From Reclinomonas americana ATCC 50394 (taxonomy: Eukaryota): DNA of 64,000 bases. The notes under the pieces were generated by a model. It searched no databases and had not been told where the DNA came from. It was given only the letters and a program-made list of their open reading frames with translations. The stretch is taken from assembly GCA_048213135.1 (NCBI GenBank), contig PS015058.1, positions 120,042 through 184,041 of the forward strand. Reading direction: 5' to 3'. Positions 3,988 through 57,200 of this stretch are shown here, piece after piece. A program made the translations under genes and the position numbers. The first letter of the stretch is position 1. Each line of letters opens with the position of its first letter.

Positions 3988-4787
3988 ATGAGCATTGTGG
4001 CGCCGATTGTTGCAGCGGTGGAGGATGAGCAGAGACCACCTGCGCCTCCCGCCGCATCTGCCTCGCATCTTCGCGTGCAACAACAAGGTGCGTGTCGTGC
4101 ACACACACGCGCGCGCGAGTCGCCTTACTCATATGCGGGCCCTCTCAGGTGGCGAGCACCCTCAGTCGTGGAAGATCGTCTCGCGGTTCATGCAAGACGA
4201 CCTGTTCGCGCGGGAGGAGTTCCAGCCCGCGCCTGCGCCCATTGCAGCAGTGGACGCCGATGCAGCAGCGAGCACCGGCGATGTGATGCTCATGGTGGAG
4301 AACAATGACGCGCCTGCAGCAGTCGGCGATGCCGGGGCGGCGGCGGAGGACGGCGGCGACGATGACGTAGAGGGGGCCGTCGACGAGGACAATGACGGCG
4401 GGAGGAAGCGCAAGAAGACGAGCGAGCAGATTCGTGCGTTGGTGGTGTTGGATCCGAGTCGGCAGGCGGCGCGCGATCGGCGAGTGGAGGGTGCGGTGGA
4501 GCCGGAGTCGCCGGCGGGTGCGGTGTCGTCGATGGCGTCGTTGAGTGAGGCGGATTTGGGCACGAGTGAGATTGGTGTGGAGAGGCACATGGTGGAGACG
4601 GCGACGCAGACGGTGGCGACGAGTGATGGGATGAAGGTGGATGGCGAGGTGGAGCAGAAGAAGAAGGGTGAGTGACGCAAGGGAGAAAAGGGGAAGGGGA
4701 GATGAGTGGCGTGTGTGACTGACTTTTGCTTTGCTTTGGTGTGCAGTGTCGACGCCGTGCTGCGGTGCTGCGTGTGTGGTTTTGTAA
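3988..4787 (+). CDS. Small acidic, low-complexity protein with a C-terminal polybasic/palmitoylation/CaaX tail (KKKVSTPCCGAACVVL*)
   Basis: Three exons: 3988-4087, 4149-4667 and 4747-4787. Donors are GTGCGT and GTGAGT, both acceptors are CAG, the frame is preserved, and the product ends CVVL-TAA. Confidence 0.7.
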
Positions 4788-5098
4788 AGATGTGGTGTGA
4801 TACAGTGGAGACATAGGTTGTAAAGTGTGTGTAATGTGACTGCGGCGTCCATGAAGACATGATTCGCTGGTTTGTCGTGGCGGCGGTCCCTCAGCTCTTG
4901 CCCTCGAATTGCATATGCGCGCATTGTTCCTTCCAGCACCCTCGACTCTTCGCCGTGTGGTCGTTGTGCTGCTGGTGGAATTCAAGGATCAGTTTAGGGC
5001 CCGGCACAGAAACCCACCGAACCCGCCAGTTGCTGACAACTCGCAGTGCGCTTGCGACAAAAATTTGCCAACGCGCGACGGAGCAGAGCACGCACACA

Positions 5099-8000
5099 AT
5101 GTCGGTGTGTGGTTTGTGCATCTCTCTTCGCTCCTTCTCTGTGTTCTCACTGGCCTTCTTTGCATAGTTCTCTGTGAACGTGAGTGCGGCGCATGATTCG
5201 TCGCAGTCGGTGGTGGTGGAGGGCATGTCGGCCGCGTCCACTCTCGCGGACTTGCTGCGCGAGGCCACACGCTTGCTGCGAGAGAAGAGTGGAGATGCGG
5301 GGGTGGAGATTGTGGGGGTGGATAAACCACTGCCACTCAACATCGAAGAGGGTGGTGGCATTCCGCTTCGCATTCTTGGCATCAACCCATCCACTCATCT
5401 CGTCGTCCGTGTGACGCTTGCCGTGGCGATGCAGTCGAGCGGAGGGAGTGGAAGTGGAAGGTGTGTGTCTGTGATGTGTGTGCGAATCATCTCTGCATGC
5501 ATGAATCTCACTCTCATGTCTCCGCACAGCAACTCGGAGCGAGTGACTCGGTTTGTGTTGCTGGCCTTCTTCCTTGCTCTCTCCCCTGCTTGCTCTTTCA
5601 TCGATACTGACAGCACTGGGCGCACAGCATGACCAACTTACAGCGCATCAACATGGCCTTCGAGGTGGTGGTGGAGGCCGTGCGTCTGTGCTGTCAACGC
5701 GCATTGGCGCAGTTCATTCGCGATCATCCCGACTTTGATGTGCTGGCGTGGACTCCCGATGTGTGGACCCCACCGTTGTTCTGGCATCCGCTAACAATCA
5801 AGGCGTGGTACGATCGACATGCACCACTCCACCCTGGTCGAGTCAAGTTATTTGTGCCGCAGCAGCAGCACATGGTCAACTGGAAGTCTGCTTTTGATGC
5901 CGACCCCGCCTCCGAACCTCCGTGTTCTGCGTTTGACGTGACGGCCTTGTGTCGATCATGCTGTTTGGTGGCTTTGTGCGTGACGACGGTTGCAAGCTGC
6001 TGCTGATTGACAATGTCGATGAGCGACAGGCGGCGGAGCAACTTCGTGAGGTGCGGAACGAGTTGGTCCATCGATTGTCTGCATGGACCGACGCCAGTGT
6101 GCAAGAGTATCTCGGTGACCGTGGCACCTTCCTCGCCCTGCTTGGCAAGCTGCGCCTTCCTGCCGACGCAATGGCCGATTTTGCGACGCGGATTCGTGAA
6201 GCGCGCCTCATTGATGTCGACATTAGCACGTTTGCCGTGCGCCTGCATCGACTGGCTGTACGTGAGATGGCCTATTATCACGAAGACGAGAGTGTGCGCA
6301 AGGACATGCAGATGTATGTGCCACTGCTGTGCTCACGTGATCGCGACACCTCCTCGAGTGAGAAGATGATGGATCTGTTGATGGAGGTGGATGCTTTCCT
6401 CTCTGACACCAACAGCACCCAGCGTGTGCTGGTACTCTTTGGCAACAGCGGGGCCGGCAAGACCACCACCATGTCGGTGCTGGCTGAGCGGGCGTGGCGA
6501 CAGTGGCAGACGAGAGAGAGCCGACGTGTACCTGTGCGTGTGCCTCTTGGTGCACTGCGAAATGCCGATGAGCGGTTGTTGGAGGAGGCACTGGAGCGAC
6601 TGTCGCCCGAGTTGGGGCTGGAGTCGGATGTGCGACGGTTGAAGGAGGAGCCGCTGCTTTTGTTGCTTGACGGGTACGACGAGTTGTATCGTGGTGTGAA
6701 TTTGTTTGTCAAGAACCAGCTGGATGTGTGTCGCGATGTGAAGGTGATTATCACATGTCGAGGCGATTACGCACTGACGGCACTGGGTGGCGTGACGCAG
6801 TATCGACGGTACTTTGCACCTGTGGATGCACGAGGACAGTTGTGCATGCAGCAGTTGATGGAGCGACATATTGCACCGTTCAACAAGGAGCAGATTGAGG
6901 AGTACTTTGAGCGACTCGTGCAAGTGGGTGGTGATGATGATGACGGTGATGTGCGATTGTCGACTGCCGAAGAATACATTCGTGCACTGAAGGGTGTGCA
7001 TGGACTGGATGCACTGGTGTCGAATCCGTTCCTGCTGGCGGTGGTGGCTCGTGTGTTGCCACAGTTGGTGGAAACTGGTGTGCAGCGACCGACACGGTGT
7101 GATGTATTTGAGCGATTCATTCGACAGTGGATTGTGAGGGAGCAGGAGAGGCAGACGCGTCTCGGTGCGGAGCGTGTGCCGAGTGAGGAGACGTGTCTGG
7201 CATTCTGCGAGGGACTGGCGCGGTTGATGCATGAGAGGAATGCGGTGCGTGTGTCTGTGAAGGAGAGTCGATCAAATGAGGATGACTTTGGCGGTGCGCC
7301 ACTCGCGTTGCGACGAGTAGAAGATGGACCATTTGACAAGTTCCTCGGACACAAGAACCAACATGTACGAGTGTGCTGCCCGATTGTGCGACGGTATGGG
7401 ACGACGCAGTGGGGTTTCGTGCATCTGTCGTTGCTGGAGCACTGTGTGGCACGGCATGTGTTTGCGTGGGAGACGTGGGAAGAGGAGAGGAGATTGACGA
7501 TGCAGGATGTGCAACAGCATGTGTTGGCTGTGCGACTGCTGAACGACAGACCATCGCTGGTGGAACAGATGGCCGAGGTGGTTCGTCGGTCTCCGCGACT
7601 GCAAGCAAGACTGTGGGAGGTGATTTTTATGTCACGAGAGGTGGACAGTCGGCGAGTGGTGACGGCAGCCGCGAATGCGGCGACGGTACTATGTATGGCA
7701 CAAGTGTCGTTCAGTGGGCGAGTTTTATCGGGTGTGCGAGTGAGGGGTGCGGATTTGAGGGATGCGGTGATGCACCAGACGGTGTGGAGGGGTGCGGATT
7801 TGCGAGGGGTGAATGTATGCATGGCGTATGCGAGGGAGGCGGATTTCAGAGGAGCAAATGTGGCGGGTGTGAGGTGGCCGAGGAAGCCGATGGAGGGGCA
7901 CACTGGCGGGGTGAGCTCTGTCGCTGTCACTCCCGATGGTCAGCAAATTGTGAGTGGCAGCGGGGACAAAACTGTACGGGTGTGGTCGGTGGCAAGTGGT

Positions 8001-9833
8001 GAGGAGGTGCGCCGACTGGAAGGCCACACGAGTTGGGTGACTGCAGTGACAGTGACACCTGATTGTCAGTACATTGTGAGTGGCAGTAATGACAAGACTG
8101 TACGGGTGTGGTCGGTAGCAAGTGGCGAGGTGCGTCGACTGGAAGGCCACACTGACTCAGTGGAGGCAGTGGCAGTGACACCCGATGGCCAGCACATTGT
8201 GAGTGGCAGTGGTGACAAGACTGTACGGGTGTGGTTGCTGGCGAGTGGAGAAGAAGTGCGACGACTGGATGGACACACTGAAAACGTATCGTCTGTTGCC
8301 GTCACTCCCGATGGTCAGCACGTCGTGAGTGGCAGTGGAGACAAGACTGTGCGTGTGTGGTCGCTGCATAGTGGGGAAGAAGTGCGACAGTTGGAGGGCC
8401 ACACTGACGAGGTGCAGACTGTCACCGTCACTCCAGATGGCCTGTACATTGTGAGCGGCAGTTGGGACAGGACTGTGCGAATATGGCCATTGGCGAGTGA
8501 ACAAGAGGTACGACGGTTGGGGGGACACACTGGTGCGGTGTTTTCCCTCGCTGTCACTCCCGATGGAGAACATGTTGTGAGTGGAAGCGGGGACAAGACA
8601 GTGCGGGTGTGGTCACTGCGGAGTGGGGAAGAGGTTCGACGATTGGAAGGGCATACTGACGCGGTGCATTCTGTAGTGCTCACTCCCGATGGTCTGCACA
8701 TTGTGAGTGGGGGTGATGACAAAACAGTGCGTCTGTGGTCTGTGGTGGATGAGGAAGGCGTACGACGGATGGGAGGTCACACAGACTCATTGCGTTCTGT
8801 TGTGCTCTCTCTCGATGGTCAGCACGTGATGAGTGGAAGTGGAGATATGACGGTGAGGATGTGGTCGGTCACAACAGGAGAAGAATTGTGGATGGTGAAG
8901 GGACAGTCGTCGGAGCTGATTGCGTCTCTCGACAGTCGGTATGTTGTGAGTGGGAGTGTGGACGGGGCGGTGCGTGTGTGGTCACTGGAGAGTGGAGAGG
9001 AAGTGTGCCGACTGGATGGCCACACAAGTGGGGTGCAGGCATTGGCAGTGACACCCAACGGCCAGTACATTGTGGGTGGCAGTGGTGACGGGACTGTACG
9101 GGTGTGGTCGGTGGCAAGTGGACATGAAGTGCGACGATTGGAGGGCCACACGAGAGAGGTGTCTGCAATGGCTGTGACGCCCGACGGTCTACACATTGTG
9201 AGTGGCAGCGAGGACAGCACTGTGCGAGTGTGGTCGCTGGCAAGTGGCGAGGAGGTGCGCCGGCTGGAGGGACACATTGACTTTGTAATGTCTGTTGCCG
9301 CTACTCCCGATGGTCAGCGCATCGTGAGCGGTGGTGGAGACAAGACTGTACGGGTGTGGTCACTGGCAAGTGGAGAAGAGGTGCAACTTTTGACGGGGCA
9401 CATTGACTGGGTGCGGTCTGTCACCGTCACTCCCGATGGTCAATACATAGTTAGTGTAAGTGATGATACGTCAATTCGACTGTGGTCACTAAGAAGTGGA
9501 AAAGAAGTGCGGCGGTTCAAGGGGCCCACTCGCTGGGTGCGTTCAGTTGCCATCACTCCCGATGGTCGGCACATTGTGAGTTGTGATGCAAACGACGCTG
9601 TGCAAGTGTGGTCTTTGGGGAGTGGAGAAGAAGTGCCTCTTGACGATCAGGCTGATCTTGTGACACTTGCCGCGGGTTGTGTCGCCTTCCTTCGCTGCAT
9701 GGCATTTGGTGCTGCGTACACCGCACGAGTGTCTGGCAAATCGATTCAGTTGATGCGTCGAAACACTCGCGGGCTGGTGGAGCGCATCCTCGGCTCCGTG
9801 GTGCCCGACTTTACAGACGCGCTCGGTATTTAG
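5099..9833 (+). CDS. NLR-like STAND protein: Ubl-like + HEPN-like + NACHT + pentapeptide + 14 WD40 repeats (one apparent 1-nt frameshift at ~5950)
   Basis: Exons 5099-5104, 5168-5460, 5530-5550 and 5628-9833. Walker A GNSGAGKT (~6441), Walker B LLLLLDGYDE, IITCR, NPFLL and GFVHLSLLEH motifs. AAANAATVL is followed by pentapeptides (GADLR). 14 GH…W WD40 repeats. FDVTAL…REVRNELVH is a HEPN-like motif. Confidence 0.9.
7894..9640 (+). repeat. Array of 14 highly similar ~126-bp WD40-coding repeats
   Basis: Unit consensus LEGHTxxVxSVAVTPDGQHIVSGSGDKTVRVWSLASGEEVRR. The DNA motifs gtcactcccgatgg and gacaagactgtacgggtgtggtc recur. Confidence 0.95.
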
Positions 9834-9846
9834 GCCAGCGAAAAGT

Positions 9847-10256
9847 GAGGACATTGATGTCGAGAGGATCGAGAAGCGAGCAGATTCGTGCGCTGGTGCT
9901 GGCGCAGGATCGGCGAGTGGAGGGTGCGGTGGAGCCGGATTCGCCGGTGGTTGAGTGAGGCGGATTCCGGCGCCAGCTGTTGATCGGAGGAGGCATGTGG
10001 TGGAGGCGACAACGCAGACGGTGGCGACGAGTGATGGGATGAAGGCGGAGGGCGAGGTGGAGCAGGAGAAGAAGGGTGAGGAAAGGGAGAAGGGGTGAAG
10101 GGGAGATGAGTGGCGTGTGGACTGACTTTTGTTTTGTGTTTTGGTGTGCAGCGTCGACGCCGTGCTGCGGTGCGTGTGAGAGAGTGGAAACGTAAGTTGT
10201 AAAGATAAAGTGTGTGTTGTTCCAAAGACTGTCGTCATATGAGAGTTGCTGGTGTT
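9847..10256 (+). pseudogene. Degenerate direct-repeat copy of 4385-4875 (C-terminal exons, intron and 3' region of the CaaX gene)
   Basis: Shared blocks include gagcagattcgtgcg, ggcgagtggagggtgcggtggagccgga, acgcagacggtggcgacgagtgatgggatgaagg, the intron and gtcgacgccgtgctgcggtgc. Indels break the frame and CVVL* is lost (reads CCGACERVET*). Confidence 0.85.
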
Positions 10257-12041
10257 GCGCGTCTGTCGCCCGACACGATCATGTCATATGGGCGGCACAC
10301 GTGGCTGCCTGTGTTCGCGTCACCTCTGCACGGCAGTAACTGCTGACACTGGCTCTGCTTTCACGCGACCAGCATGTNNNNNNNNNNNNNNNNNNNNNNN
10401 NNNNNNNNNNNNNNNNNNNNNNNNNNNNNNNNNNNNNNNNNNNNNNNNNNNNNNNNNNNNNNNNNNNNNNNNNNNNNNNNNNNNNNNNNNNNNNNNNNNN
10501 NNNNNNNNNNNNNNNNNNNNNNNNNNNNNNNNNNNNNNNNNNNNNNNNNNNNNNNNNNNNNNNNNNNNNNNNNNNNNNNNNNNNNNNNNNNNNNNNNNNN
10601 NNNNNNNNNNNNNNNNNNNNNNNNNNNNNNNNNNNNNNNNNNNNNNNNNNNNNNNNNNNNNNNNNNNNNNNNNNNNNNNNNNNNNNNNNNNNNNNNNNNN
10701 NNNNNNNNNNNNNNNNNNNNNNNNNNNNNNNNNNNNNNNNNNNNNNNNNNNNNNNNNNNNNNNNNNNNNNNNNNNNNNNNNNNNNNNNNNNNNNNNNNNN
10801 NNNNNNNNNNNNNNNNNNNNNNNNNNNNNNNNNNNNNNNNNNNNNNNNNNNNNNNNNNNNNNNNNNNNNNNNNNNNNNNNNNNNNNNNNNNNNNNNNNNN
10901 NNNNNNNNNNNNNNNNNNNNNNNNNNNNNNNNNNNNNNNNNNNNNNNNNNNNNNNNNNNNNNNNNNNNNNNNNNNNNNNNNNNNNNNNNNNNNNNNNNNN
11001 NNNNNNNNNNNNNNNNNNNNNNNNNNNNNNNNNNNNNNNNNNNNNNNNNNNNNNNNNNNNNNNNNNNNNNNNNNNNNNNNNNNNNNNNNNNNNNNNNNNN
11101 NNNNNNNNNNNNNNNNNNNNNNNNNNNNNNNNNNNNNNNNNNNNNNNNNNNNNNNNNNNNNNNNNNNNNNNNNNNNNNNNNNNNNNNNNNNNNNNNNNNN
11201 NNNNNNNNNNNNNNNNNNNNNNNNNNNNNNNNNNNNNNNNNNNNNNNNNNNNNNNNNNNNNNNNNNNNNNNNNNNNNNNNNNNNNNNNNNNNNNNNNNNN
11301 NNNNNNNNNNNNNNNNNNNNNNNNNNNNNNNNNNNNNNNNNNNNNNNNNNNNNNNTTGTTGTTGTTGTAAAGTACCTGCGTCTCCCTTCGCTGCTCACCC
11401 GAGACAGCAACTTCCACGAAGCTATATCACATTGAATGGACACGTGCAGGTGCTCCTGCCACTCTTCTCACGATTTCCGATGCGTTTCCCCACACACCAT
11501 CTACAGTTCGGAGTCGACCGTAGACCCGATCGATCGAATTTCTCATTTTTTCGCGCGCGCGCGCCGTCGGTGCGTCATCGTCGATCGACACCGTCACTTT
11601 CACGAACGCCACCTCTCTCTCACACACACACTCTCTCTCTCATCCACACACACCCCCACTCACGCACGCACACACAGAAAGGCACACAGAGAGGCAGGCA
11701 GTCGTTGTGTGTGTCAGTGTGAGAGCCAGCGAAATTTACCTGTGTCCAATTCGCGCGCGCTCTTTTCTCTCTCTCTCCCCCACTCTTCTCACTCTCTCTC
11801 TCTCCACACACTCTCTCCCCACCCTTCTGCACACATGCACACGCACTCTGCGTGGAGTTGCGCAATCGCATTTTCCACGTGTCACTCTGTCGGTTGCGTG
11901 TCCATTGACCCACACTTCAATCGAACACTCGGTGGAGTTTCTCCGCGGCGCCGGACCCGATTATTTACACTCACAACTCCTCGCGCGCGCGCACACACAG
12001 ACTCTCGCTCGCTTTTGCCGTCGCATCATTTTCGAGTCAGA

Positions 12042-14842: not shown

Positions 14843-16228
14843 CACAACGAACCAGCCACGCGAGCTTCACTTCTTGCGATTCCGGTGACTCTGGCGGCTG
14901 TGCATGAAGGTGAGCACTACAAAAATCGACAGAATGTAGGACTGCCGTTCTTCCAGCACCTGCTTGAGCTCGGCAATCAGGTTGCGCACTCGGTTGCGCG
15001 AGAACAGCTCTTCCATGCCTCGGAACACCGACATTTCGTGTCCCTCGGTGTCGATCTTTGCCTGCAGGCGCTTGACACTCAACTGCCACGAACAGCACAC
15101 TTTTCGGAGAATGAGGGCGCACGTACCAGCAGCACATCCTCGTGCACCACATCGGAGATGGCCAGCGATTCGACAGGACCGTTGGCATCCGGCTTCATGA
15201 CAGTCTCCATGGATCCGTGACCCTCCTGACAAAGCACAGAGGGATAAGGACATGAGACAGTCGCACTCTTCTCTCTCCCTCTCTTTTCCCTCCTTCCCCT
15301 TCTACCCCCCTCCCTCCTTTCGCTCACCGACTGCAAACTATACCGCTTGCCACTGCGCTCCGACACGGCATTCTCAAACACCTTCACTCGATCGCCGACA
15401 CGATTGAGATCGGCGTTGAACTGCATACCACAATTATGTGAGCGTCACTTCCTGAAACCACGAGAGAAGAGCGAGACGCACCTTGATCAAGAAGATCCCG
15501 TCGGCAGTCGGCTCAAACATGTACACGCGGCAGCCATACGACGCCGCCATCAGACCAAAGTAGCCAGCATACGCCTGCACGATATCAGCATCACTGAACC
15601 CAAGCGCGCTTTTCCAGGCGACACGAAACTCCAATGTCCAGCACAAGCGGAGGCGGCGACTGCGACGAGCAGCCTTGCGAGAGGATACGATGCACAATCG
15701 CAGTCTCCGTCTGCGCCCACATGCCGCTCCGGATCATCATCTATCCATCCCAGCTCAGCAACTGACAGGACGACTTCTCCTCTCCCCGCTCACGACGCAA
15801 CTCGATGCGCATCGACCTGCGGCGGCAACGCCATCACAAACGACGGCGATGTACGCATCGTGGCGAGCTGCAAAATGGGTTCGGCCACACGCAGCGAGCT
15901 CGCCACCCAATCCACCCGTTTCCGCGCCTTTTCCACTGCTTCCGCCCTGCTCGCCCTCACGCGCACCTGCAACGCACGCAACACCGCCACGGGTATACCC
16001 GCAGACGGCGACACAAGCATCTCCTCCAGAACGGATTCATTGTCGCCGAGTGCGCTCAGAGACAACACGCCCTTTGTGTGTGTTCTTCCGTAAATATGCG
16101 ACATGATTTGGCGGGAATGCGCATGCGCAAAAAGACGAAACTCGTGAGGTGAGCGCTTGTGTGAGTGGCGCCATGCTCGCGACTGGCCAGTCGTTGTCCG
16201 CAGCCAGTTGCGCCAGTGTTGCCTCCAT
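14174..16228 (-). CDS. FkbM-family SAM-dependent methyltransferase
   Basis: The spliced product contains VLDIG|AYAGYFGLMAASYGCRVYMFEP, VKVFENAVS and DVLL|AKIDTEGHEMSVFRG, which are typical FkbM motifs. About 10 exons, all in frame. Confidence 0.85.
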
Positions 16229-21100: not shown

Positions 21101-24100
21101 GATCACACGACATTGTTTGCCGGTCTCGACAACCCGCGATCACCGTTTGAGTTGTCGGCCGACGCATTCGCACCCCTGGATGCACTCGGACGCGAGCTCG
21201 GTCTCAAGATCCACATGGTCGGCTTTGGCGAGAACCGCCACTCGGTGTCGGTGCCTGCTGACCTCGAGTTGCACGCGCTGCTGAAGGCACCCGATCTGCC
21301 CTCCTCCAAGTCCATCATCTTCAATGTGGGCCGCCTGATGCCCCCAGAGGCTCCCGGCATTTTGGCACCGCCTCGGTACTGCGTGTGTCCTTTTCGCATC
21401 CCGGACTCCCCCTGTGCTCACTGTCTGCTGCAGGAGTGTGAGCTCTGTCAACTACAGATTACTGCGTCGCGAGTTTGTACAGTCGTGGAAATCTCGCCTA
21501 AGTCCCGATGCGTTTGTCGGTTTTGGATACGATCGTGCTGGCGAGCATCAACGAGATGTGGTGGCAGCGACTGTGCACTTGCGTGACGTTGCGTGCTTCA
21601 CTCCCACTACTTGTTGTCTTGCCTGTGTGCGTGCTTATGCGCTGCTGCAGGAGGTGATTCCCAATGCGGCTGCCGTGCTGTCACACATGGCGACGGGCGT
21701 CGATGTGACGAATGTGCTGCATGAGATGGGCGTCAATCTGCGCCACATGGGTCTCGTCCGCACTCTCGTGTCATCTCCCGATATGCGCAGTCGTCTCCTG
21801 GCCGAGATGATTGCGCGCACGGCCAAGTGCGTGCTGGCCTCGGCACTTGCGCAGTCCGAGTTTGCTGGTGACGAGCGCACCTACAAGACCGAGGCCGTGA
21901 AGATCCTCAACAATCTCCTGGGTGTGGGACCGTACACGCTCGAGGAGTGGCAGGTGAGAGGGTTTATGGGATGGCCTTCCGTGTGGAACGCGTGGCGCTT
22001 ATTCGACTCGCAGATTGTGAAAGAGATCATGGTCGACAAATTCCACAGTGCGCTGACGCCGGCCGAGTTCGAGCGCAGCTTCGATTTGAGGAAACAGGTC
22101 GGTGGTCGTCGGGGGTTTCAATGCTTGGAATCGTGGTGCTCATGCAGTCTGCTTCTCCTCTCCCACGCAGATCAATCGTCTCATGCTTGGTGAGCTGCTG
22201 GAGCGCGAACTCGGCATTGTGTTCCGCCGCGACGCTGTGGAAAAGTACCTCGTGGATCCCAACCTGCTGGATACGGAGTCGCCGTTCTCCGACAGTGACA
22301 TCCAGCCCGTGCGCGTCAAGGTTTGCCCCTCTGTGAGTGGTTGGCAGCGCCTTGCGTATCATCATTGTGACTTCTCCACAGTTGCTGCGCTACGACGAGG
22401 AAGATGCCGTGTTCCAGATGATGCGCAAGGAGAGGAGATTACTCACGGACTTGCTGCCGACGCCTAACACTGGTGCGCGTGTTTGTGTGTGCTGGTCATC
22501 ATTGGAGGGGCGAGTGACTCACAGCATGCCTGCAGATGTGACCAAGCTGCCCGAGAATATCATCAAGTGCATCCTTCGCTTCACAAGATGTCAGACGGTG
22601 TTTGCTCTGGCATCTGCTGGTGTTGGCTCCCATTCGCACTTGGCTCTCCTTCGTGAGGCGTGGAAGTGCTATGCGGGCTTGTACCGGCCCGACTTGTTGC
22701 ACGCCATGAGTGAGAAGATTGTTGCGTGCCATTCATCTTTTCCACTCCTCTTCCCACTGCTGTTTCGTGCCTGACTGACGTGGCACACGCACAGCGCGAG
22801 CTCGAGTCCAGTGAATTGGTCTTGTCGCACGAGCGACGATTCAACCTGCAGGCCGACACGGAGACGTATCTCGGCTTGGCGCGCGGTCTCACTGCCACCA
22901 ATGTGGCGTCGCTGATGTTGCGATGATTTGATGGACTCGTTATTTTTCAGTTGTGATTGTGCTCATCCCATGTCTCTCATTCGCCGACAGTGCCGCCATG
23001 GAGAACATGCGCGTCATTGGCTATGCCACCGATCTTTACGCGCACAAACTAGTGCAGGCCGCGTGCTTGTCGATCCAGAACCCGTCGGCCGTGACCGCTG
23101 CAGACTTGGCACCGGGCATTGACTTGCTGCAGCGAGGCATGAGCGCGGCGCCGTTCAACTCGGAGATTCAAATGGTAACGCTGAGGTGGCGACGGCTGCT
23201 AGGATGATTTAGAAGTCGACTGACGTGTGTTTTGTACAGATGACGATTGAGCGCATTTTCGACATTTTCCCTCGACCGAGTTCGATTGGCCCGGTGAAGA
23301 GTCTGGACTCGCTGCAGAGTTTGCTCGGCAAGGTGACTGACTCGGCCGAGATTCCCGTCAGTTCCACCGATGTGCGTACTCTCTGTTGTCTGCCTGCTTC
23401 CGCACGACAGTACTTTACTGACTGTTTGTCACGACGAGCAGCTGAGTGTCACTCGTTGGTCTCTGGTGCTCGAGTCCGTCAAGGCGCAGTTGGGCGACAG
23501 CGACGTGACGATTGCATTCCTGCTGCTGTTCTCCGAGCACTACTTGGCCATGGGCGAGCAGCACCAGGCGGTGGATTTGGCGACGAGCGCGCTGGCGATG
23601 GTGCGGATTGCGAGTCTCCCCCAACCTCGTGCTCCTTCCCTCACCACTCGTGCAGTACTCGAAGCGCTACCCCAATCAGTGGACCAAGAACATCTTGTAT
23701 GCGCACTGCCACCGTGCACTCGGCGCCGCCAACATGACGGTGGACGAGCGTCGCGCCATTGAGTCATTGCGAAACGTGCGTCACATATCTTCTCTCCGCT
23801 TCTGCTCGCTTTCTCCTTGGCTGACAAGGTGTTTCTGCATGTGCAGTCGCTCGACGCCTACCGCTATCTCGGTCGCGATGTGTCATCATCTGGTCGATCG
23901 ACGCTCAAAAAGTATGAGCACATGACTTGCATTCTGTTGCAGCTGACGCTGATTCATGAAGGCTCGCCGAACTCGTTTGCCGAGTTTGATCTTGTTGCGT
24001 CTTGATTCGTCTGTGGGTCGGCCTCGGTCAACATGCGTCTCACCCGCTGCCCGCGTGCACAATGTAGCTGAACGAGTCGCTGGCCGAGTACCGCGACTCG

Positions 24101-27100
24101 GAGTTTGTCGACCAGAGCCTGAAACCGAGTCTCGATTTCTTCCGCAAGGCGCGTGCAGTCGAGTCGGCGCGCGAGCGTGGACGCCGATTCGGTGATCGCA
24201 CGGTGGAGGGCCTCAGCATGCTCGTGCGAAGTGTTGCGTCGTTGATTGTCGAAATCGTGAAGAAAGTGGCGGCGCGATTTTGACCTCCCATCTCCACACA
24301 TGCAGGTCGCCGAGGAAAGCAGTCTGCTCTCAGATCCGGATGCGGTGAAGCAGCTGGTAGATCCCGGTGAGTGCTCTCATTCTGTCGATGAGCACGCGTA
24401 CATGCGGCAGCTCATGCTTTCTCGTGATTGTGCGAATAGATGCCAAGCTGGTGGCGGATGCAGCCATGCGCCGGGATGCCACCGAAGCCGGTGTGCTGGC
24501 CACACAGCTGATGCTGCGCGCTCTCGCCTCCACGGTGCGCATCCGCAGTCTGTTTTATCACTCCACAGTACTCTACTTATCTTGATTGTGTTTTCCATCA
24601 GCGCGATGGCGAGGCATTGACTCTGCTTACACATGCGGACCGTGTGGCCCGAGAATCTGTGGAGCAGCAACCGAATTACGAGCCGATTCTCGTCGTGAGC
24701 GGATTGGTGTCCATGCACCTCGGCGATGTGATGCAACGGTGCGATACAACTCATGTCGCGCGTGTATTAATGCACCTGTTACTCACTTTCGTCTTTCGCG
24801 GCACCAGTGTCGGTCGTCACGAGGAGGCTCGGCAACATCGAGACGACAGTGCCGAAATGCTCAGTCGTGCAGTCGAGGTGTGTTGTCGCTGACTAAGGGA
24901 GGTCACAGTCCGTTATCGCTGATCACTTGATTCGGCAGATGAATCCCGACAATCGTGATGCACTGCATGGCTTGTCGAATGTGCTGTTCAAGACGGCGTG
25001 CGCCGAGTTGAAATCGTCTTCGGCCGTGCAGCTGTTTAGCAGATCGCTGGAGTACACGAGAGAGGTATGTGGCCGTCTCTGCTCTTCTGCCCATGTTCTT
25101 CGACTCACGATGCCACACACTATAGTGTCGCAATGCACCGTCGTCGCGCTCACTCGGTCCGGAGGCCGTGGCCGAGTTGCACTGCCGTGAGGGCATCTGC
25201 CTGATGGTCATCGGGTGGCACTCGGGCGAGCGAAGCACCGAGGAGCGTGTCGGCTTCCTCACGCAGGCTGCTACGCAGTTCGAAGATGCGCTGGAGGATT
25301 TGCCGCACTTTAGACCAGCATTGCAGCACTCGGGTGAGGAGATCGAGAGATTTCTGGCTGAGTTGTGTGCGTGGTGCTGACACACTCCTTTCTCTCTCGC
25401 AGTGCAAAACTACTATTTGCTCGGTCGGTACACACCCGATGAGAACGCCCTCAACTACTACGTCATGGCCGTCGACCGTGCATGCAAGTTCTCGTCCGAA
25501 GGCTTCGACGTGCGCATTGTGTCGCTGTGGGCCGGCCTGTCGATCTGCGAGGTACTGTCGATGGAGAGAGGAAGTAACCTGGGACGTGTTGCGCACGAGA
25601 CTTACCTGTTTGCTGCAGATCATTCGTCAAACGAGTGATGGTATCACGGTGCCGGAGGAGTTGCCACTGGCTGCCTTCCGTCTGCTGCGCAGTGGTGCCG
25701 TGGCAGCGCGCACCAATCCTGCGAGGAGCTCGATCATGCTGAACGAGACGCTGAACCCGCTGGCCTTGGCGAGTTGCGTCGTGTCGTTTCGCGTTTGTCA
25801 GCAGCGCACTGGTGATGCTCATGAGATGGTGATGTGTATGTGCAGTGGGCCGCGGTGGTGGTGGTGCGATGGATGACGGAGGTCCGTCAGGCGGTGCGTC
25901 GGCGTACTCGGACAGTGTGGATGAAAGTGTGCACAATCGGATGCGCAGCCCGCAGCAGCACCTTGCTGCCTCGAACGCCACTGCTGTGCACGGCTCGACG
26001 TCCATGTTGCGTGCAAATCTGTGCTGCACCCCTGACAATCGATTTCTCACACGTCACCTTCTTCTTCACGCAGTTTGAATCACTCGCTGCAACCGGACGT
26101 GTGGGTTCTGGCCGCCGCAGCGTCGGCCGTGGCAACCATCTCGTACCACCGCCACTACGACGGTTTGTATTGTGTCTGCCTGTTACTGCGCGTGCTTGGT
26201 TGTTTCACTCACGATCCCACAGGCGAGGCGCTTCCTCGTGCCGGTGCCGCGCTGTGTCGTCAGCTGCTGGAGGTGGCGCGGACGATGCTTCCGCGTGACT
26301 CGTCGTACCCGCACCGCCCGGGTGCCAATGGATCGGCAGCCGGCGACGACGATGAGGAGGTGCCGATGCCGCCGGAGGCGCAGGCTCCGCGTGAGAACAA
26401 TCGACGACGAGGTCGTTCGATTTTCGGTCGCACACTCGGACCGAAGAGCATGTCGTCGTCGTCGCTGCTGACGTCGACCATTACATCGCCCGAGTCGGAT
26501 GCCATTGCACGCGTGGAGGTAGGTTTTGCTGTCATTCACTTGTCATCCCCTTCTCTCTCACTCTATTACCGTGTGTGCAGTCGCACCCTCTGCTGGCCAA
26601 GTACCCTGCAGCGGCGGACACGACAGACGAGGTGCTGCTGACATTGGAGTTTGGTGCGTGCTTTTCCCCACTCGCTCCTTGGTTGGCATCCATTTCCTGA
26701 CGAAAATGTGTGGACCACAGAGTCACTCGACATGACGCTGGTGTTGGATGCGCTGGCGAGTGTGTGCCAGCGCACGATGGCGCCCGGCACGTCGATTCTC
26801 AACTCAGGCACCGCCTCCTCGACTGGCAGCATGGCACTGGCGGCCGCGCGCAACAATGACATTGAGTATGTGCAGCAGTTGTTGCAGTCGGGCTTCGACA
26901 TCAACTACGTGTCGCCCACCGGCAACACGCTGCTGGAGAGTGCGCTGATGGGCAAGTACGAGGATCTCGCGCTGTTCCTTATCGAGCGGGGTGCCAATGT
27001 GCGCCACTACAACCAGCACTTGTGTGCCAGTGTCGGGGTACGTGCTGTGGTGGTGGTGGTGGAGGAGAAAGTGAGCCAACTTACTGACTCTTCTGGCTTG

Positions 27101-28299
27101 TGACAGTCGATTGCGATTGCATTGAATTGTTTGCAAGTCGTGCGCAAGATGCACGAGTTGTCGGTGAACTTTGCGGAGACGCTGCCGAATGGCGGTATCC
27201 CGTTCCAGCAAGTGTCATCGTCCGCGGGTGTCGAGCTCATGCGGGAGCTCGGTTTTGACTTTAATGTGGCAAACTTGTTGCGTCGACTGTTGGAGAAGAA
27301 GGCGGTGCTTGACTGTGTGTTTGTCGCTCACTTTTGCACGGCAGCAAACAAAACAACTGCCTACACATTGCGATTCGCCTGAAGCGCGAGAGCGCCGCCG
27401 TGCACATGATTCAGGTTTGGTTCATGAATGTTTGTTTGTTTGAGTGGTATGCTGATGGTGTGTCATGTGCAGCGTGGATACATTACCGATCTCAATGCCG
27501 CCAACTCGGAAGGCCTGACGGCAGCCCATCTGGCAGCTCGCGAAGGCCAATTCAAGGTGCTGGAGCAGCTGTGCCAGCGGTCGGCGCTGCTCGATTTGCG
27601 AGACTCGCGCGGCAACACGCCGCTGCACCTGGTTTGTGCACAGTGCCCCCATCATCTCCACCGACGCCGCGTTCTCACCCCCCTTGCGTGCAGGCTCTCC
27701 GACACAATCAGCCTCTGTGTGCCAAGCTGCTGGCGCAGCGCGGCGCTCGCGTGGATATGGCGGATGAGAATGGTGTCACTCCGGAGCAGCTGGCTTCGGC
27801 ACAAGGCGTGGATCTGTTTGGTGCGGACACGCAGCATGTCATTGCGCCTCGTCGTATCCCGTACTTATTATGTCGTGATGATGATAATGCAGAGCGATTC
27901 ATGCCGCCAGCCAATCTGCGTAAGGCGTTCCGCTCCAAGGAGGGTCTGCTGAAAAAGTACGGCAAGAAGCAGCGCGTGTACATGTACAAGCTTTTGCGCG
28001 ACCGTCTGGAGTACTACCACGTCGATGTTGCGTGTTCCCACCCCCCTCCTGTACTCCACTCCATGCCACTGACCCACACGCACACCTCACAGGGAGTGCT
28101 CAAGGGCGTGCTTCGCGGCGTGATTCAGCTCTCCGACATGCGCCTCGTGGAGGCTCTCGAACCCGGCACCGGCGTCAAGGGCATGCCTCCGTTCGGATTC
28201 CGCGTCAACACTGCGCGGAAGAGTTTTATGTTTGCACCCCCACAACAGGAACAAGTAGAGAAGTGGGTCGATGCCATTCGGCAGGCGATGGAGGCCTGA
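16484..28299 (+). CDS. Giant multidomain protein: PLC-type PH - ARM/HEAT - Clu domain - TPR-like - ankyrin repeats - PH
   Basis: About 45 GT-AG introns spliced in frame by hand. N-terminal PH: LLKYGRKGKPHKRIFRL…TLDLACES. Clu motifs: PLACVVDYVG, PADLELH, GRLMPPE, RLLRREFV, LSPDAF, LHEMGVNLRHMGLVR, EMIARTAK. Ankyrins: GLTAAHLAAREG, GNTPLHLAL. C-terminal PH: KEGLLKKYG…EKWVDAIRQA. Confidence 0.85.
18040..18744 (+). repeat. Example of a pyrimidine microsatellite-filled long intron
   Basis: (CT)n and cryptic CT-rich repeats. Similar tracts lie at 14550-14840, 16860-17175, 41600-43045, 47880-49090, 51845-52900, 54760-55450 and 62550-63710. Confidence 0.9.
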
Positions 28300-49544: not shown

Positions 49545-53085
<3,541 letters not shown>

Positions 53086-54217: not shown

Positions 54218-57200
54218 ATGTTCTTCTCGTCGAACGTGCTGACCAAATCGGTGAGCCACACACCAACACAACAAACACACAAACACACAAACACATGTGT
54301 CGAAAGTCACCACGAGCTTCCCGCGCTTTTAAAGGAAACTGGCACTCTCACTCTCACACTTCTCTCACTCAGGGTCCTCTTGGTGTTGTGTGGCAAGCAG
54401 GTGCGCCTTTCTCTCACACACACTCTCTTACACTCTCACTCACTCACATTTTTTCGGCACTTTGATGATGAGCAGCACACGATCTGAAAAAGCTGAAAAA
54501 GAGCGAGATCTTGCACACGTCGATTGAGGAGTCGTGCAGTTGCGTGAATTATGAGAGAGTGTGAGTGTGTGAGAGAGAGTGTGTGTGTGCTGATTGTTGT
54601 TGAAATTTGTAAAGGGAATGTGTCGGAGCCGAAAGTGCAACTGGCGCTGCGCACGTCGGGCCATCTCTTGTATGGCATTGTGCGCATCTACTATCGCAAG
54701 GTTAACCCTCCATTGAGCGCGTGTGTGATTTGGGATTGCGTTGTGAGTCTGACTCTCATCATCTCTCCGTCTCTCTCTTCCCATTCCTCTTCCTTCTTCT
54801 TCTCCTGCTTCTCCTTGTTCTTGTTCTTCTTGTTGTTCTTCTTCTTCTTTAACATCTCCTTCCATCTCCCTCTTCTTCTTCTTCTTCTTCTTATTCTCCT
54901 CTCCTTTTTCTTCTTCTTCTTCTTCTCCTTCTCCTCCTCATTCTCTTCTCCTGCTTCTTCTTCTTCTTCTTGTTCTTGTACTTCTTTATCTCGTTCTATC
55001 TCCTTCTTCCTCGTCCTCTCTCCCTCCCTCCTTCCTCCTCTCTCCCTCCACTTTCCATCTCTCTCCCTACTCTCGTTCTTCTCCTTCTTTGCGTCCACCT
55101 CTTTCCACTCCTTCCCCTTCTCCTTATTCATCTTGTTGTTCTTCTTGTTCTTTTTATTCTTCTTCTTGGTCTTCCTTCTTCTTCCCCTTCTCCCTCTTCC
55201 TCTCCTTCTTCTTCATCCTCCTCTTCTCCTTCTTGTTCTTCTCGCTCTCTCTCTTCCGTCTCCGTTTCCCTGTTCCCTCTCCGTCTTCCTCCTCCCATCT
55301 CCTCCTCGCTGTTGCTCTTGTTCTCTCCTTCTCCCACTCCTCGCCTTCCCTCCCTCTTTCTCCTCTCTCCTCCTCCTCCTCCTCCTCCTCCTCCTCCTCC
55401 TCCTCCTCCTCTTCTTCTTCTTCTTCTTCCTCCCCCTCCTCCCCCTCCTCAGGCGGAACTCCTGCTGGGCGACTGCACGGATGCCCGCGCACGCATCAGC
55501 ATCACGGCCATGAGCGCTGCGCAGGCGGTGGAGCGCATGGCGGCGCCGGTGGCCTCGACGGCCGCCATCACCCTGCCCGAGGTGCACCATGCGTCGCAGC
55601 TCGGAGGATCGGGAGCGGGTGCGGGTGTGGGATTGGACTATGGTGATATGTTTTTGCCCCTCGGCGATCTGGATGAGCTGCCGGAACTCGAGGGAGAACC
55701 CATGATTACGTTTTCGCTGGGCAGCAGTCAGCAGCAGTCGCAGCAGCAACCACCCGATGTCAGTTGCGGAGCAAGAGGGGATGATGGGGGAAGGGAGGGC
55801 GAATGGGGAAGGGAGGGATTTGGAGAGAGAGGAGAGGGAGAGGGAGAGAGAAGGGATAAATAGGAGCGACAAAGTGAGAGATTGAGAACTCGCTGTGAAA
55901 TGCGTTGACGAAGTGTGGGCATATCTCATTCGCGCGCGCTCTTTCTCCCTTTGCTCGATACTCTAAAAATGGGCAGTGAGTCGACAGGGACAGGAGCGAG
56001 GAAATGAGAGTGAGAGAGAGAGAGGAGGATCCAGGTCGCCGCCTCGTTCATTCTTTTCGTCTCATACCCTTGTCTTCTTCTATCCGTCTCGCTCGTGACA
56101 CAGTAATCGTGCCCTGTTGTCTGCCTTCCTCCTTCCTCCCAGCCTTCACAATAGCGCGCACGCACTAGTTTGGAGGATTGCATCCGCTCCCTCTCTCTCT
56201 CTCTCGTTCACTTACTTCTTCGGTCTCTCTGTCTCTCAATGTATATTGCGCGCTTGAGACAAGTGCACTGTCTGCTGCCTTCATATTTTCCTCGCAGCCT
56301 TCGGAGAGACACATACACAGAGAGACGAGGGTCCAGGTGTCGCGCCCGCTCCTGCTCGCTGTCTATCTCTCGCAACCAATCTTGCGCATTGGAAACCAGC
56401 TCCCTATGCGCTCGCCTCCTTTTCTCAGCCTTCGCTGGGACATACACTTTCAGAGCTCATATTCTGCCCTCTCCACTCACCTCTTTGGCCCCTAACACTC
56501 GCCACCACAGCCCCGGTCCGCCGTGGTCAAGATGTCGAGCACGTCCGTCTGGCATTCGACGAGGAGGAGGAAGAGGAGATGGCGGAGCCGGAGAAAATGC
56601 GTGGGGAGATCGAAGGCGACGCGGTGGCGGGGAGGGACGACGGCGATTGTTGCGTCTCTTATCTCGTTTATTCGAGTGATTCCCGCATTACCACGACCCC
56701 CTTTCCACTTTCCCCATTCCACTTCCTCTTTCCACTTCCCACTCTGCCACTTTCCCTTCTCACTTCTCCCATTTCCACTCGCCATATTCCGCTTCCCTTT
56801 TCCACTTACCTCTTTCACTGCCCCCAATTCCACATCCACCATTCCACTTCCCCCTTGCCACTTCCCCCTTCCCCCCTTCTCACTTTCCCCCTTTCCCCTT
56901 TGCCCCCCCTTCCACTTCCCCTTCCCCCCTTCCACCTCACACTCCTTCGCGCAGTCTACTTTGAGGCTGGCTACGGAGTCGAGCTGGACAACTACGATCG
57001 GGAGCAACCACCATCCCCGACCATCAAGTCTATTGTCAGCCACGAGAGCGGGTTCGTCTCTCCGTGTGCGTGGAGATGAGAGCCGCCTTGGTTAACAACT
57101 CATCCCCGTTGCAGGGAAGAGCACGTGTTGGGCCAGTCTCGCCAGAGCATCGGCGGCGTGTCGGTGCCGGAGATTTCCGGTTTGTGCCACTCCACCTTGT

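Follow-up and report, generated by a model that had tools for sequence, protein, structure and literature searches.

Contig PS015058.1 of the Reclinomonas americana ATCC 50394 assembly GCA_048213135.1 carries, in the 64,000-nucleotide (nt) stretch analyzed here (positions 120,042–184,041 of the forward strand; hereafter, the window), a locus that encodes a STAND/NLR-like receptor of the NACHT-WD40 type with a block of pentapeptide repeats. The locus lies at window positions 5099–9833 on the plus strand, where three open reading frames (ORFs) overlap or adjoin one another. Its parts follow the tripartite order by which NLR/STAND proteins are recognized, with an N-terminal effector position, a nucleotide-binding and oligomerization domain (NOD), and a repeat sensor; the candidate effector is a HEPN-like module. 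We interpret the whole as a STAND/NLR-like receptor with a frame-broken, HEPN-like N-terminal module, a reading to which we assign a probability of about 0.45.

The receptor chassis and its relatives

The receptor is recognized from the long frame-3 ORF, the sole ORF displayed in the six-frame view (Table 1). The original prediction had placed a NACHT-WD40 ORF here, and it is present, with Pfam matches to NACHT, Pentapeptide, and 14 stretches of WD40. In the translation of 5937–7970, the NACHT profile PF05729 matches residues 163–326 (E = 1.1e-9; 38.7 bits against a cut-off of 26.7) and is spanned from position 1 to position 162 of 167. The Walker A motif, defined as GxxxxGKT/S, is intact as GNSGAGKT at 6441–6464, and the Walker B motif, hhhhDGxDE, is intact as LLLLLDGYDE at 6654–6683. 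The pentapeptide profile PF00805 matches residues 588–624 of the same translation in two stretches (E = 3.5e-6; 26.9 bits against a cut-off of 20.2). The Pfam scores above cut-offs and the Walker motifs support the earlier reading of the gene as an NLR-like NACHT-pentapeptide-WD40 protein.

The WD40 part is built from 14 units of 39–42 residues, 12 of which are exactly 42 residues long and share a mean pairwise identity of 60%. The corresponding DNA is a tandem array with a period of 126 nt and 11.6 copies at 69% matches (Tandem Repeats Finder). Columns 5 and 7 of the repeat are the most variable, followed by column 33 and then by columns 4, 23, 41, and 42; in column 25, residue types are as numerous as in columns 5 and 7, but 6 of its 7 types occur only once. 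Variation concentrated in a few columns among otherwise similar repeats is, we presume, the look of HET-E/NWD-type recognition surfaces. The Beta-prop_NWD2_C profile gives a weak match on the last repeats (21.2 bits, under its cut-off of 33). Judged by their number, the 14 repeats would be enough for two seven-bladed propellers. After the last repeat, a hydrophobic stretch, LVTLAAGCVAFLRCMAFGA (9657–9713), reaches a maximum Kyte-Doolittle mean of 1.86 over 19 residues and could serve as a membrane anchor or form an amphipathic helix.

A search with the first 560 residues of the long ORF returned 60 homologs at E ≤1e-3 among 8,000 candidates scored, with identities of 24–32% and a best E of 5.1e-35. 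By source name, nearly all of them come from Mortierellaceae fungi or from Mycoavidus/Glomeribacter endosymbionts, and these proteins have the NACHT domain, helical region, pentapeptide repeats, and WD40 repeats in the same order as here. The BLASTP alignments begin at residue 135 (P0001) and residue 57 (P0047) of the ORF read from 5949 and cover the NACHT domain and its helical extension. Because they start only at residues 57–135, the stretch containing RNELVH and the pieces in frame 1 and frame 2 are private to this gene. The fungal and endosymbiont homologs instead carry long Arm-like helical solenoids at their N-termini (PF23948; 'NLR_Helical' in PMC9815663), whereas the position is occupied here by the module with RNELVH.

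The N-terminal region

All peptides quoted in the original prediction occur in the sequence, spread over frames 2, 1, and 3. We scored the three frames by codon-usage log-odds, with the score trained on the Pfam-supported coding segments of the window. The score is positive for frame 2 over 5101–5340, for frame 1 over 5581–5820, and for frame 3 from 5941 onwards, and it is negative in all frames over 5461–5580.

The most upstream piece, in frame 2, had been proposed to be a beta-grasp-like exon joined to the gene by splicing. An in-frame GT-AG join does exist: the donor and acceptor with the best consensus (5461 and 5627) are in frame with each other, and the putative intron between them has a pyrimidine tract at 5557–5600 followed by TACTGAC before the acceptor. 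An alternative in-frame intron of 203 nt lies at 5411–5613. When 26 donors were combined with 14 acceptors, 55 GT-AG pairs proved to be in frame and free of stops, and the fit between frame 2 and frame 1 is therefore weak evidence by itself. At the 5' end of the piece, ATG 5099 shares the frame of the ORF that opens at 5168, but an in-frame TAG (5165–5167) intervenes. No family in Pfam, PADLOC, or NCBIfam matches the frame-2 piece, and neither Foldseek nor VIA placed a ubiquitin-like chain above unrelated rows when queried with its AlphaFold2 (AF2) single-sequence model, which has a predicted local distance difference test (pLDDT) of only 50.3. The model contains one helix (residues 26–41) and strands at residues 47–51, 67–73, and 78–84, and this low-confidence beta-alpha-beta-beta-beta prediction is the sole support for a ubiquitin-like (Ubl) reading. 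A Ubl-like exon is a tentative assignment, at even odds or somewhat less.

At about even odds, the frame-2 ORF lies outside the protein, in a 5' untranslated region (UTR), an intron, or intergenic DNA, and translation would start at ATG 5629, 5653, or 5958. The piece lacks a homolog as well as a family and fold match, its length is commonplace in a window with 349 N-free ORFs of at least 90 codons, the alternative joins are many, and the pyrimidine tract and AG upstream of ATG 5629 would fit an intron in the 5' UTR equally well. On the other hand, the codon score of frame 2 is positive precisely within 5101–5340 and then falls, the best-consensus splice sites are in frame, and the strand-helix-strand order predicted at low confidence fits a beta-grasp fold. 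The same pyrimidine tract and AG could be taken for a trans-splice acceptor of the kinetoplastid kind, a reading that we rejected because the window carries intron-split conserved genes, among them RPN7 with its homology-supported intron of 194 nt.

Downstream of this piece, the orphan N-terminal module would comprise about 165 residues, the first 107 in frame 1 and the next 56 or so in frame 3. DVTAL (5935–5949) lies in its first part and RNELVH (6054–6071) in its second, about 35 residues apart. The spacing and the pattern 'LFxP ... FD(I/V)TxL ... RNxxxH' resemble those of DZIP3-like HEPN domains, a likeness to be taken as a lead. RNxxxH occurs 11 times in the 121,478 six-frame residues of the window (0.09 per 1000), so that about 0.02 instances are expected by chance in the pre-NACHT region of roughly 245 residues. 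RNELVH fits the HEPN motif Rx4-6H, in which R is followed by a polar residue (N/D/H), a criterion taken from PMC3710099; N after R is described in section 6 of that paper and in PMC9646362. Among 5,027 PADLOC models, the sole match to the frame-3 half is CARF1--CARF_HEPN, on residues 27–57 and thus on the motif (E = 0.044). Three of the seven named rows returned by Atlas belong to the HEPN superfamily (HEPN_AbiU2, MtlR, and Csm6_HEPN, at 0.78–0.80, with leads overall at 0.78–0.90); MtlR is counted within that superfamily in PMC3710099. For the frame-3 half, the AF2 single-sequence model, of low confidence, shows helices and places the motif inside the one formed by residues 25–43; HEPN domains are four-helix up-down bundles in which the motif stands at the end of helix 3. 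In addition, the region unique to the protein, upstream of about residue 57 of the ORF read from 5949, matches an NLR effector domain in size and position, which supports the effector reading.

Other results weigh against an HEPN module in a working gene. The PADLOC match reaches only 10.9 bits, and Atlas scores of 0.78–0.80 are attained by a third of shuffled proteins. Neither half matches PF18738 or any other Pfam HEPN family at E ≤10 (scans at E ≤1–10 covered 5611–6006, 5629–5949, 5949–6500, and 5937–7970, that is, the halves only, and the HMMER filters drop weak matches), and NCBIfam likewise gives no HEPN match to the halves. With the 138-residue frame-3 piece, phmmer found no match at E ≤0.001 among 1.84 billion representatives; none of the 924 word-sharing candidates for the pre-NACHT piece reached E ≤10; and the PDB sequence search returned only unrelated matches at E ≥0.6. 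At pLDDT values of 47–50, fold matches of the pieces are unusable. The window holds no paralog of the gene in which conservation of the motif would show (best non-self tblastn match, E = 0.49). The codon scores of the frame-2 piece (+14.5) and the frame-1 piece (+15.6) fall only in the top 9–12% and 8–12%, respectively, of windows of equal length elsewhere, whereas the frame-3 pre-NACHT piece lies in the top 1.4–2.7%. Finally, because the module is split over two frames, the gene as assembled cannot make it.

Other searches were negative or uninformative. The frame-1 piece matches no family in Pfam, PADLOC, or NCBIfam and no named family in Atlas, and none of 288 pattern matches in a scan of metagenome contigs was confirmed. 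Foldseek found no match at E ≤0.001 to the model of the frame-3 half (pLDDT 47.1); its top row, Avs4 at E = 0.14, comes from this low-confidence model and is not evidence. A complex prediction for the two halves of the module gave no answer (score 0.00) and is evidence neither way. The frame-1 piece contains no exact instance of Ex3[KR], the nearest being E-A-V-R; according to PMC3710099, this acidic helix-2 motif is present in 'many', not all, HEPN families.

On balance, DVTAL and RNELVH of the original prediction are both present before the NACHT domain, in different frames, and neither a profile match to PF18738 nor a sequence relative supported its claim of an HEPN RNase effector. A highly divergent HEPN-like RNase effector is the likeliest identity of the orphan module, at about even odds; membership in the DZIP3 family proper is unlikely.

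A less probable but serious alternative is an orphan module that acts as a helical adaptor, or as an effector of another kind, with RNELVH and DVTAL as chance matches picked out after the fact. In its favor, profile, sequence, and fold searches failed to recover HEPN significantly, the closest homologs bear unrelated Arm-like helical N-termini ('NLR_Helical'), and the text of a survey of fungal NLR N-termini (PMC9815663) contains no mention of HEPN. This alternative, however, must accommodate a motif expected only about 0.02 times by chance in the region, a sole weak profile match and three Atlas leads that are all HEPN, and the recurrence of HEPN N-terminal to NACHT in the proteins described in PMC3710099, PMC9646362, and PMC8260672.

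The second question concerns the break itself. Frames 1 and 3 are jointly open only over 5937–6006, and linking DVTAL to RNELVH takes a -1/+2 change near 5947–5951. It is most likely that a base is missing from the draft assembly or that the gene has suffered a recent inactivating mutation. The site lies outside any homopolymer, and the missing base may be an assembly error or a real loss. We consider a real break unlikely, though well worth weighing: the gene would be a recent pseudogene, or would yield a truncated NACHT-WD40 protein from ATG 5958 that lacks a working effector, since such a product would begin too late to include the module's first half or a Ubl. The position outside a homopolymer is in its favor, as are the absence of an ATG before 5958 in the long ORF, the display of this ORF alone in the six-frame view, and the codon score of the frame-1 piece, which is weaker than that of the rest. 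Yet the downstream frame of 1,298 codons is intact, the coding potential of frame 1 is still positive, and the window is a low-grade draft scaffold with 10 runs of N, from an intron-bearing eukaryote, in which a missing base is plausible.

An intact gene with no frameshift at all is improbable. It would require a 59-nt GT-AG intron at 5938–5996 (GTGACG...GCAAG), which would join ...CSAFD to LLLIDNVDERQ..., delete VTAL, and shorten the module. The join is in frame, GTGACG is similar to the donor that probably follows RPN7 exon 2 as read here, and the other inferred introns of the window are 61–63 nt long. However, the pyrimidine tract is poor, the acceptor is AAG, and the 16 codons of 5949–5996 score as coding in frame 3: their score is 7.23, against a mean of 7.38 in true frames, and this value is attained by 0.8% of windows read off frame and by 11% of those taken from putative introns. 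This coding-like score favors a missing base over the intron.

Proposed mechanism and known HEPN-NACHT systems

In the mechanism that we propose for the receptor with a HEPN-like module, the WD40 propellers would bind a ligand, and nucleotide-dependent oligomerization of the NACHT domain would gather the N-terminal modules. Should the module be HEPN, its Rx4H motifs would pair up into an RNase site that works without metal, and cleavage of RNA would lead to growth arrest or cell death. The 97-residue upstream ORF would perhaps be added through the 167-nt intron.

The original prediction had not recognized this combination as described. HEPN N-terminal to NACHT is, however, already described in PMC3710099, PMC9646362, and PMC8260672, which leaves at most the Ubl and pentapeptide additions undescribed. 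Table 1 of Anantharaman et al. 2013 (PMC3710099) lists DZIP3/hRUL138 HEPN-NACHT fusions, which are expanded in Nematostella, oyster, and Capsaspora. The pearl oyster genome paper (PMC9646362) reports over 50 NACHT proteins that bear a DZIP3-like HEPN at the N-terminus; NACHT proteins of this oyster can have LRR, TPR, or WD40 tails, and Rx4H is the commonest HEPN motif there. PMC8260672 gives 17–83 HEPN-NACHT proteins per species of anthozoan cnidarian. Bacterial proteins with an N-terminal HEPN fused to STAND are described in section 16 of PMC3710099, and sacsin, in Table 1 of the same paper, combines Ubl and HEPN in a single protein. Among the literature titles listed for NACHT-pentapeptide-WD40 proteins or for Mycoavidus NACHT, none concerned the exact architecture.

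The gene is a plausible variant of a known HEPN-NACHT architecture. As far as the cited sections describe them, the bivalve and cnidarian DZIP3-like HEPN-NACHT NLRs likewise have an Rx4H HEPN, with N after R, directly before NACHT, as proposed here. The present gene differs from them in having no PF18738 match and no sequence relative, and in its extra pentapeptide block and possible Ubl exon. Bacterial HEPN-STAND proteins, with a HEPN N-terminal to the STAND NTPase (PMC3710099), and Avs-type STAND NTPases would follow the same logic of effector activation by oligomerization, but they belong to other NTPase clades, use other sensors, and have no detected sequence similarity to the gene. Sacsin, in turn, has a HEPN of another family, located C-terminally, and no NACHT.

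The likeness to HET-E/NWD fungal NLRs lies in the other half of the protein. They too combine NACHT with alike 42-residue WD40 repeats that vary at few positions. In contrast to these fungal proteins, the N-terminus here is not HET, Goodbye, HeLo, or another listed fungal domain.

A more specific scenario, which we regard as quite unlikely, is that an orphan HEPN that evolves fast, and that a Ubl may precede, was grafted by exon addition onto the NACHT-pentapeptide-WD40 chassis, otherwise known from Mortierellaceae and their bacterial endosymbionts, in a poorly sampled, possibly non-animal eukaryote; the 'RNase-armed NLR' of oysters and corals would then have had a separate, exon-shuffled origin here. 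If the module is a working HEPN RNase, RNase-armed NACHT receptors would extend past the catalogued animal expansions, and a HEPN effector would be combined with a chassis common to early-diverging fungi and endosymbionts, which would bear on how the shuffling of domains, and perhaps gene transfer, assembles NLRs. In the cited sections of PMC3710099, PMC9646362, and PMC8260672, no animal HEPN-NACHT protein is described as biochemically tested, and a tractable example would therefore be useful. Novelty, if established, would lie in the lineage of the host, in the pentapeptide-WD40 chassis, and in the Ubl; at present, the value of the gene is that of a lead.

Coordinates and neighboring sequence

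Table 1 Features of the receptor locus and of other parts of the window, in window numbering.
Feature	Position	Strand	Remarks
Possible start mini-exon, ATG TCG	5099–5104	+	Speculative; needs 5105–5167 removed
Putative 63-nt intron	5105–5167	+	GTGTGT...pyrimidine tract...TTTGCATAG; length divisible by 3; inferred from sequence
Frame-2 ORF	5168–5632	+	FSVNVSAAHDSS...HLVVRV...
Frame-2 piece, proposed ubiquitin-like exon	5168–5460	+	FSVNVS...HLVVRV...GSGSG; the 97-codon ORF is 5168–5458
Putative 167-nt GT-AG intron	5461–5627	+	AAG/GTGTGT donor, CACAG/C acceptor; joins frame 2 to frame 1
Frame-1 ORF	5611–6006	+	ATG 5629; MTNLQRINMAFEVV...SAFDVTAL...
Frame-1 piece, proposed first half of HEPN-like module	5629–5949	+	107 residues, ends FDVTAL
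Long ORF	5937–9833	+	Frame 3, 1,298 codons, first ATG 5958
Frame break, frame 1 to frame 3 (-1/+2)	5947–5951	+	1-nt loss, or, less likely, 5' end of a 59-nt intron
Frame-3 start of long ORF, second half of orphan module	5949–6119	+	RNELVH; ...AEQLREVRNELVH in frame 3
Helical pre-NACHT linker	6120–6422	+	In part common to Mortierellaceae homologs (BLASTP)
NACHT NTPase domain	6423–6914	+	PF05729
NACHT-associated helical region	6915–7697	+	Kept in homologs; BLASTP to P0001 and P0047 through query residue 584
Pentapeptide-repeat block	7698–7871	+	PF00805; GADLRD...GANVAGV
14 WD40 repeats	7896–9647	+	PF00400, 14 stretches, E 3.9e-144
C-terminal tail	9648–9833	+	Hydrophobic stretch; stop TAG 9831–9833
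Direct repeat, upstream copy	4468–4768	+	3' part of small upstream gene; 79.6% identity over 304 nt
Direct repeat, downstream copy	9901–10173	+	Just past the NLR stop codon; then N gap 10378–11355
FkbM-type methyltransferase fragment	14870–15301	-	9.7e-6
eIF3_p135/CLU-like exon fragment	21339–22190	+	2.8e-7
Exon fragments of an ankyrin plus PH-domain gene	26642–28296	+	Pfam
RPN7/PSMD6 proteasome lid subunit exons	51089–51841	-	Pfam 6.9e-22; mammalian PSMD6, PDB E 2e-26
RPN7 intron, 194 nt	51488–51295	-	GTGCGA...TTGCAG, homology-supported
Rad21/Rec8 N-terminus (Rad21_N), partial exon	54551–54790	+	8.2e-10, profile positions 35–76 only

Upstream of the receptor locus, a small gene is predicted on the plus strand at 3988–4788. 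It would start at ATG 3988, contain a 61-nt intron at 4088–4148 (GTGCGT...CTCTCAG), continue with an acidic exon to 4667 and a GTGAGT intron at 4668–4746, and close with a short exon ending ...CVVL before TAA 4786. This ending resembles a CaaX-type prenylation signal, and the exon of the gene matches no Pfam family. The 3' part of the small gene recurs as a direct repeat just past the NLR stop codon (Table 1). Both copies include the AAGG/GTGAG donor, which is conserved, and the intron, while the frame of the downstream copy is broken by indels. This arrangement suggests a tandem duplication of a unit made of the small gene and the NLR gene; the N gap may conceal additional, collapsed copies.

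Elsewhere in the window, Pfam at E ≤0.001 matched 6 of the 128 longer ORFs, namely the RPN7 exon, eIF3_p135, two ankyrin pieces, PH (under its cut-off), and Methyltransf_21. The upstream acceptor of RPN7 follows a tract of extreme CT richness. When the RPN7 exon was used for a word-based search, none of 81 candidates reached E ≤0.001. No close relative turned up for the NLR, its N-terminus, or the RPN7 exon, and the DNA appears to come from a lineage of which the searched collections contain no annotated proteome. An Rfam search returned no matches. Long (TC)n, (GT)n, and (CA)n microsatellites occur throughout the window, and many low-complexity 'ORFs' (SLSLSL..., CVCVCV..., LLLL...) are artefacts of them.

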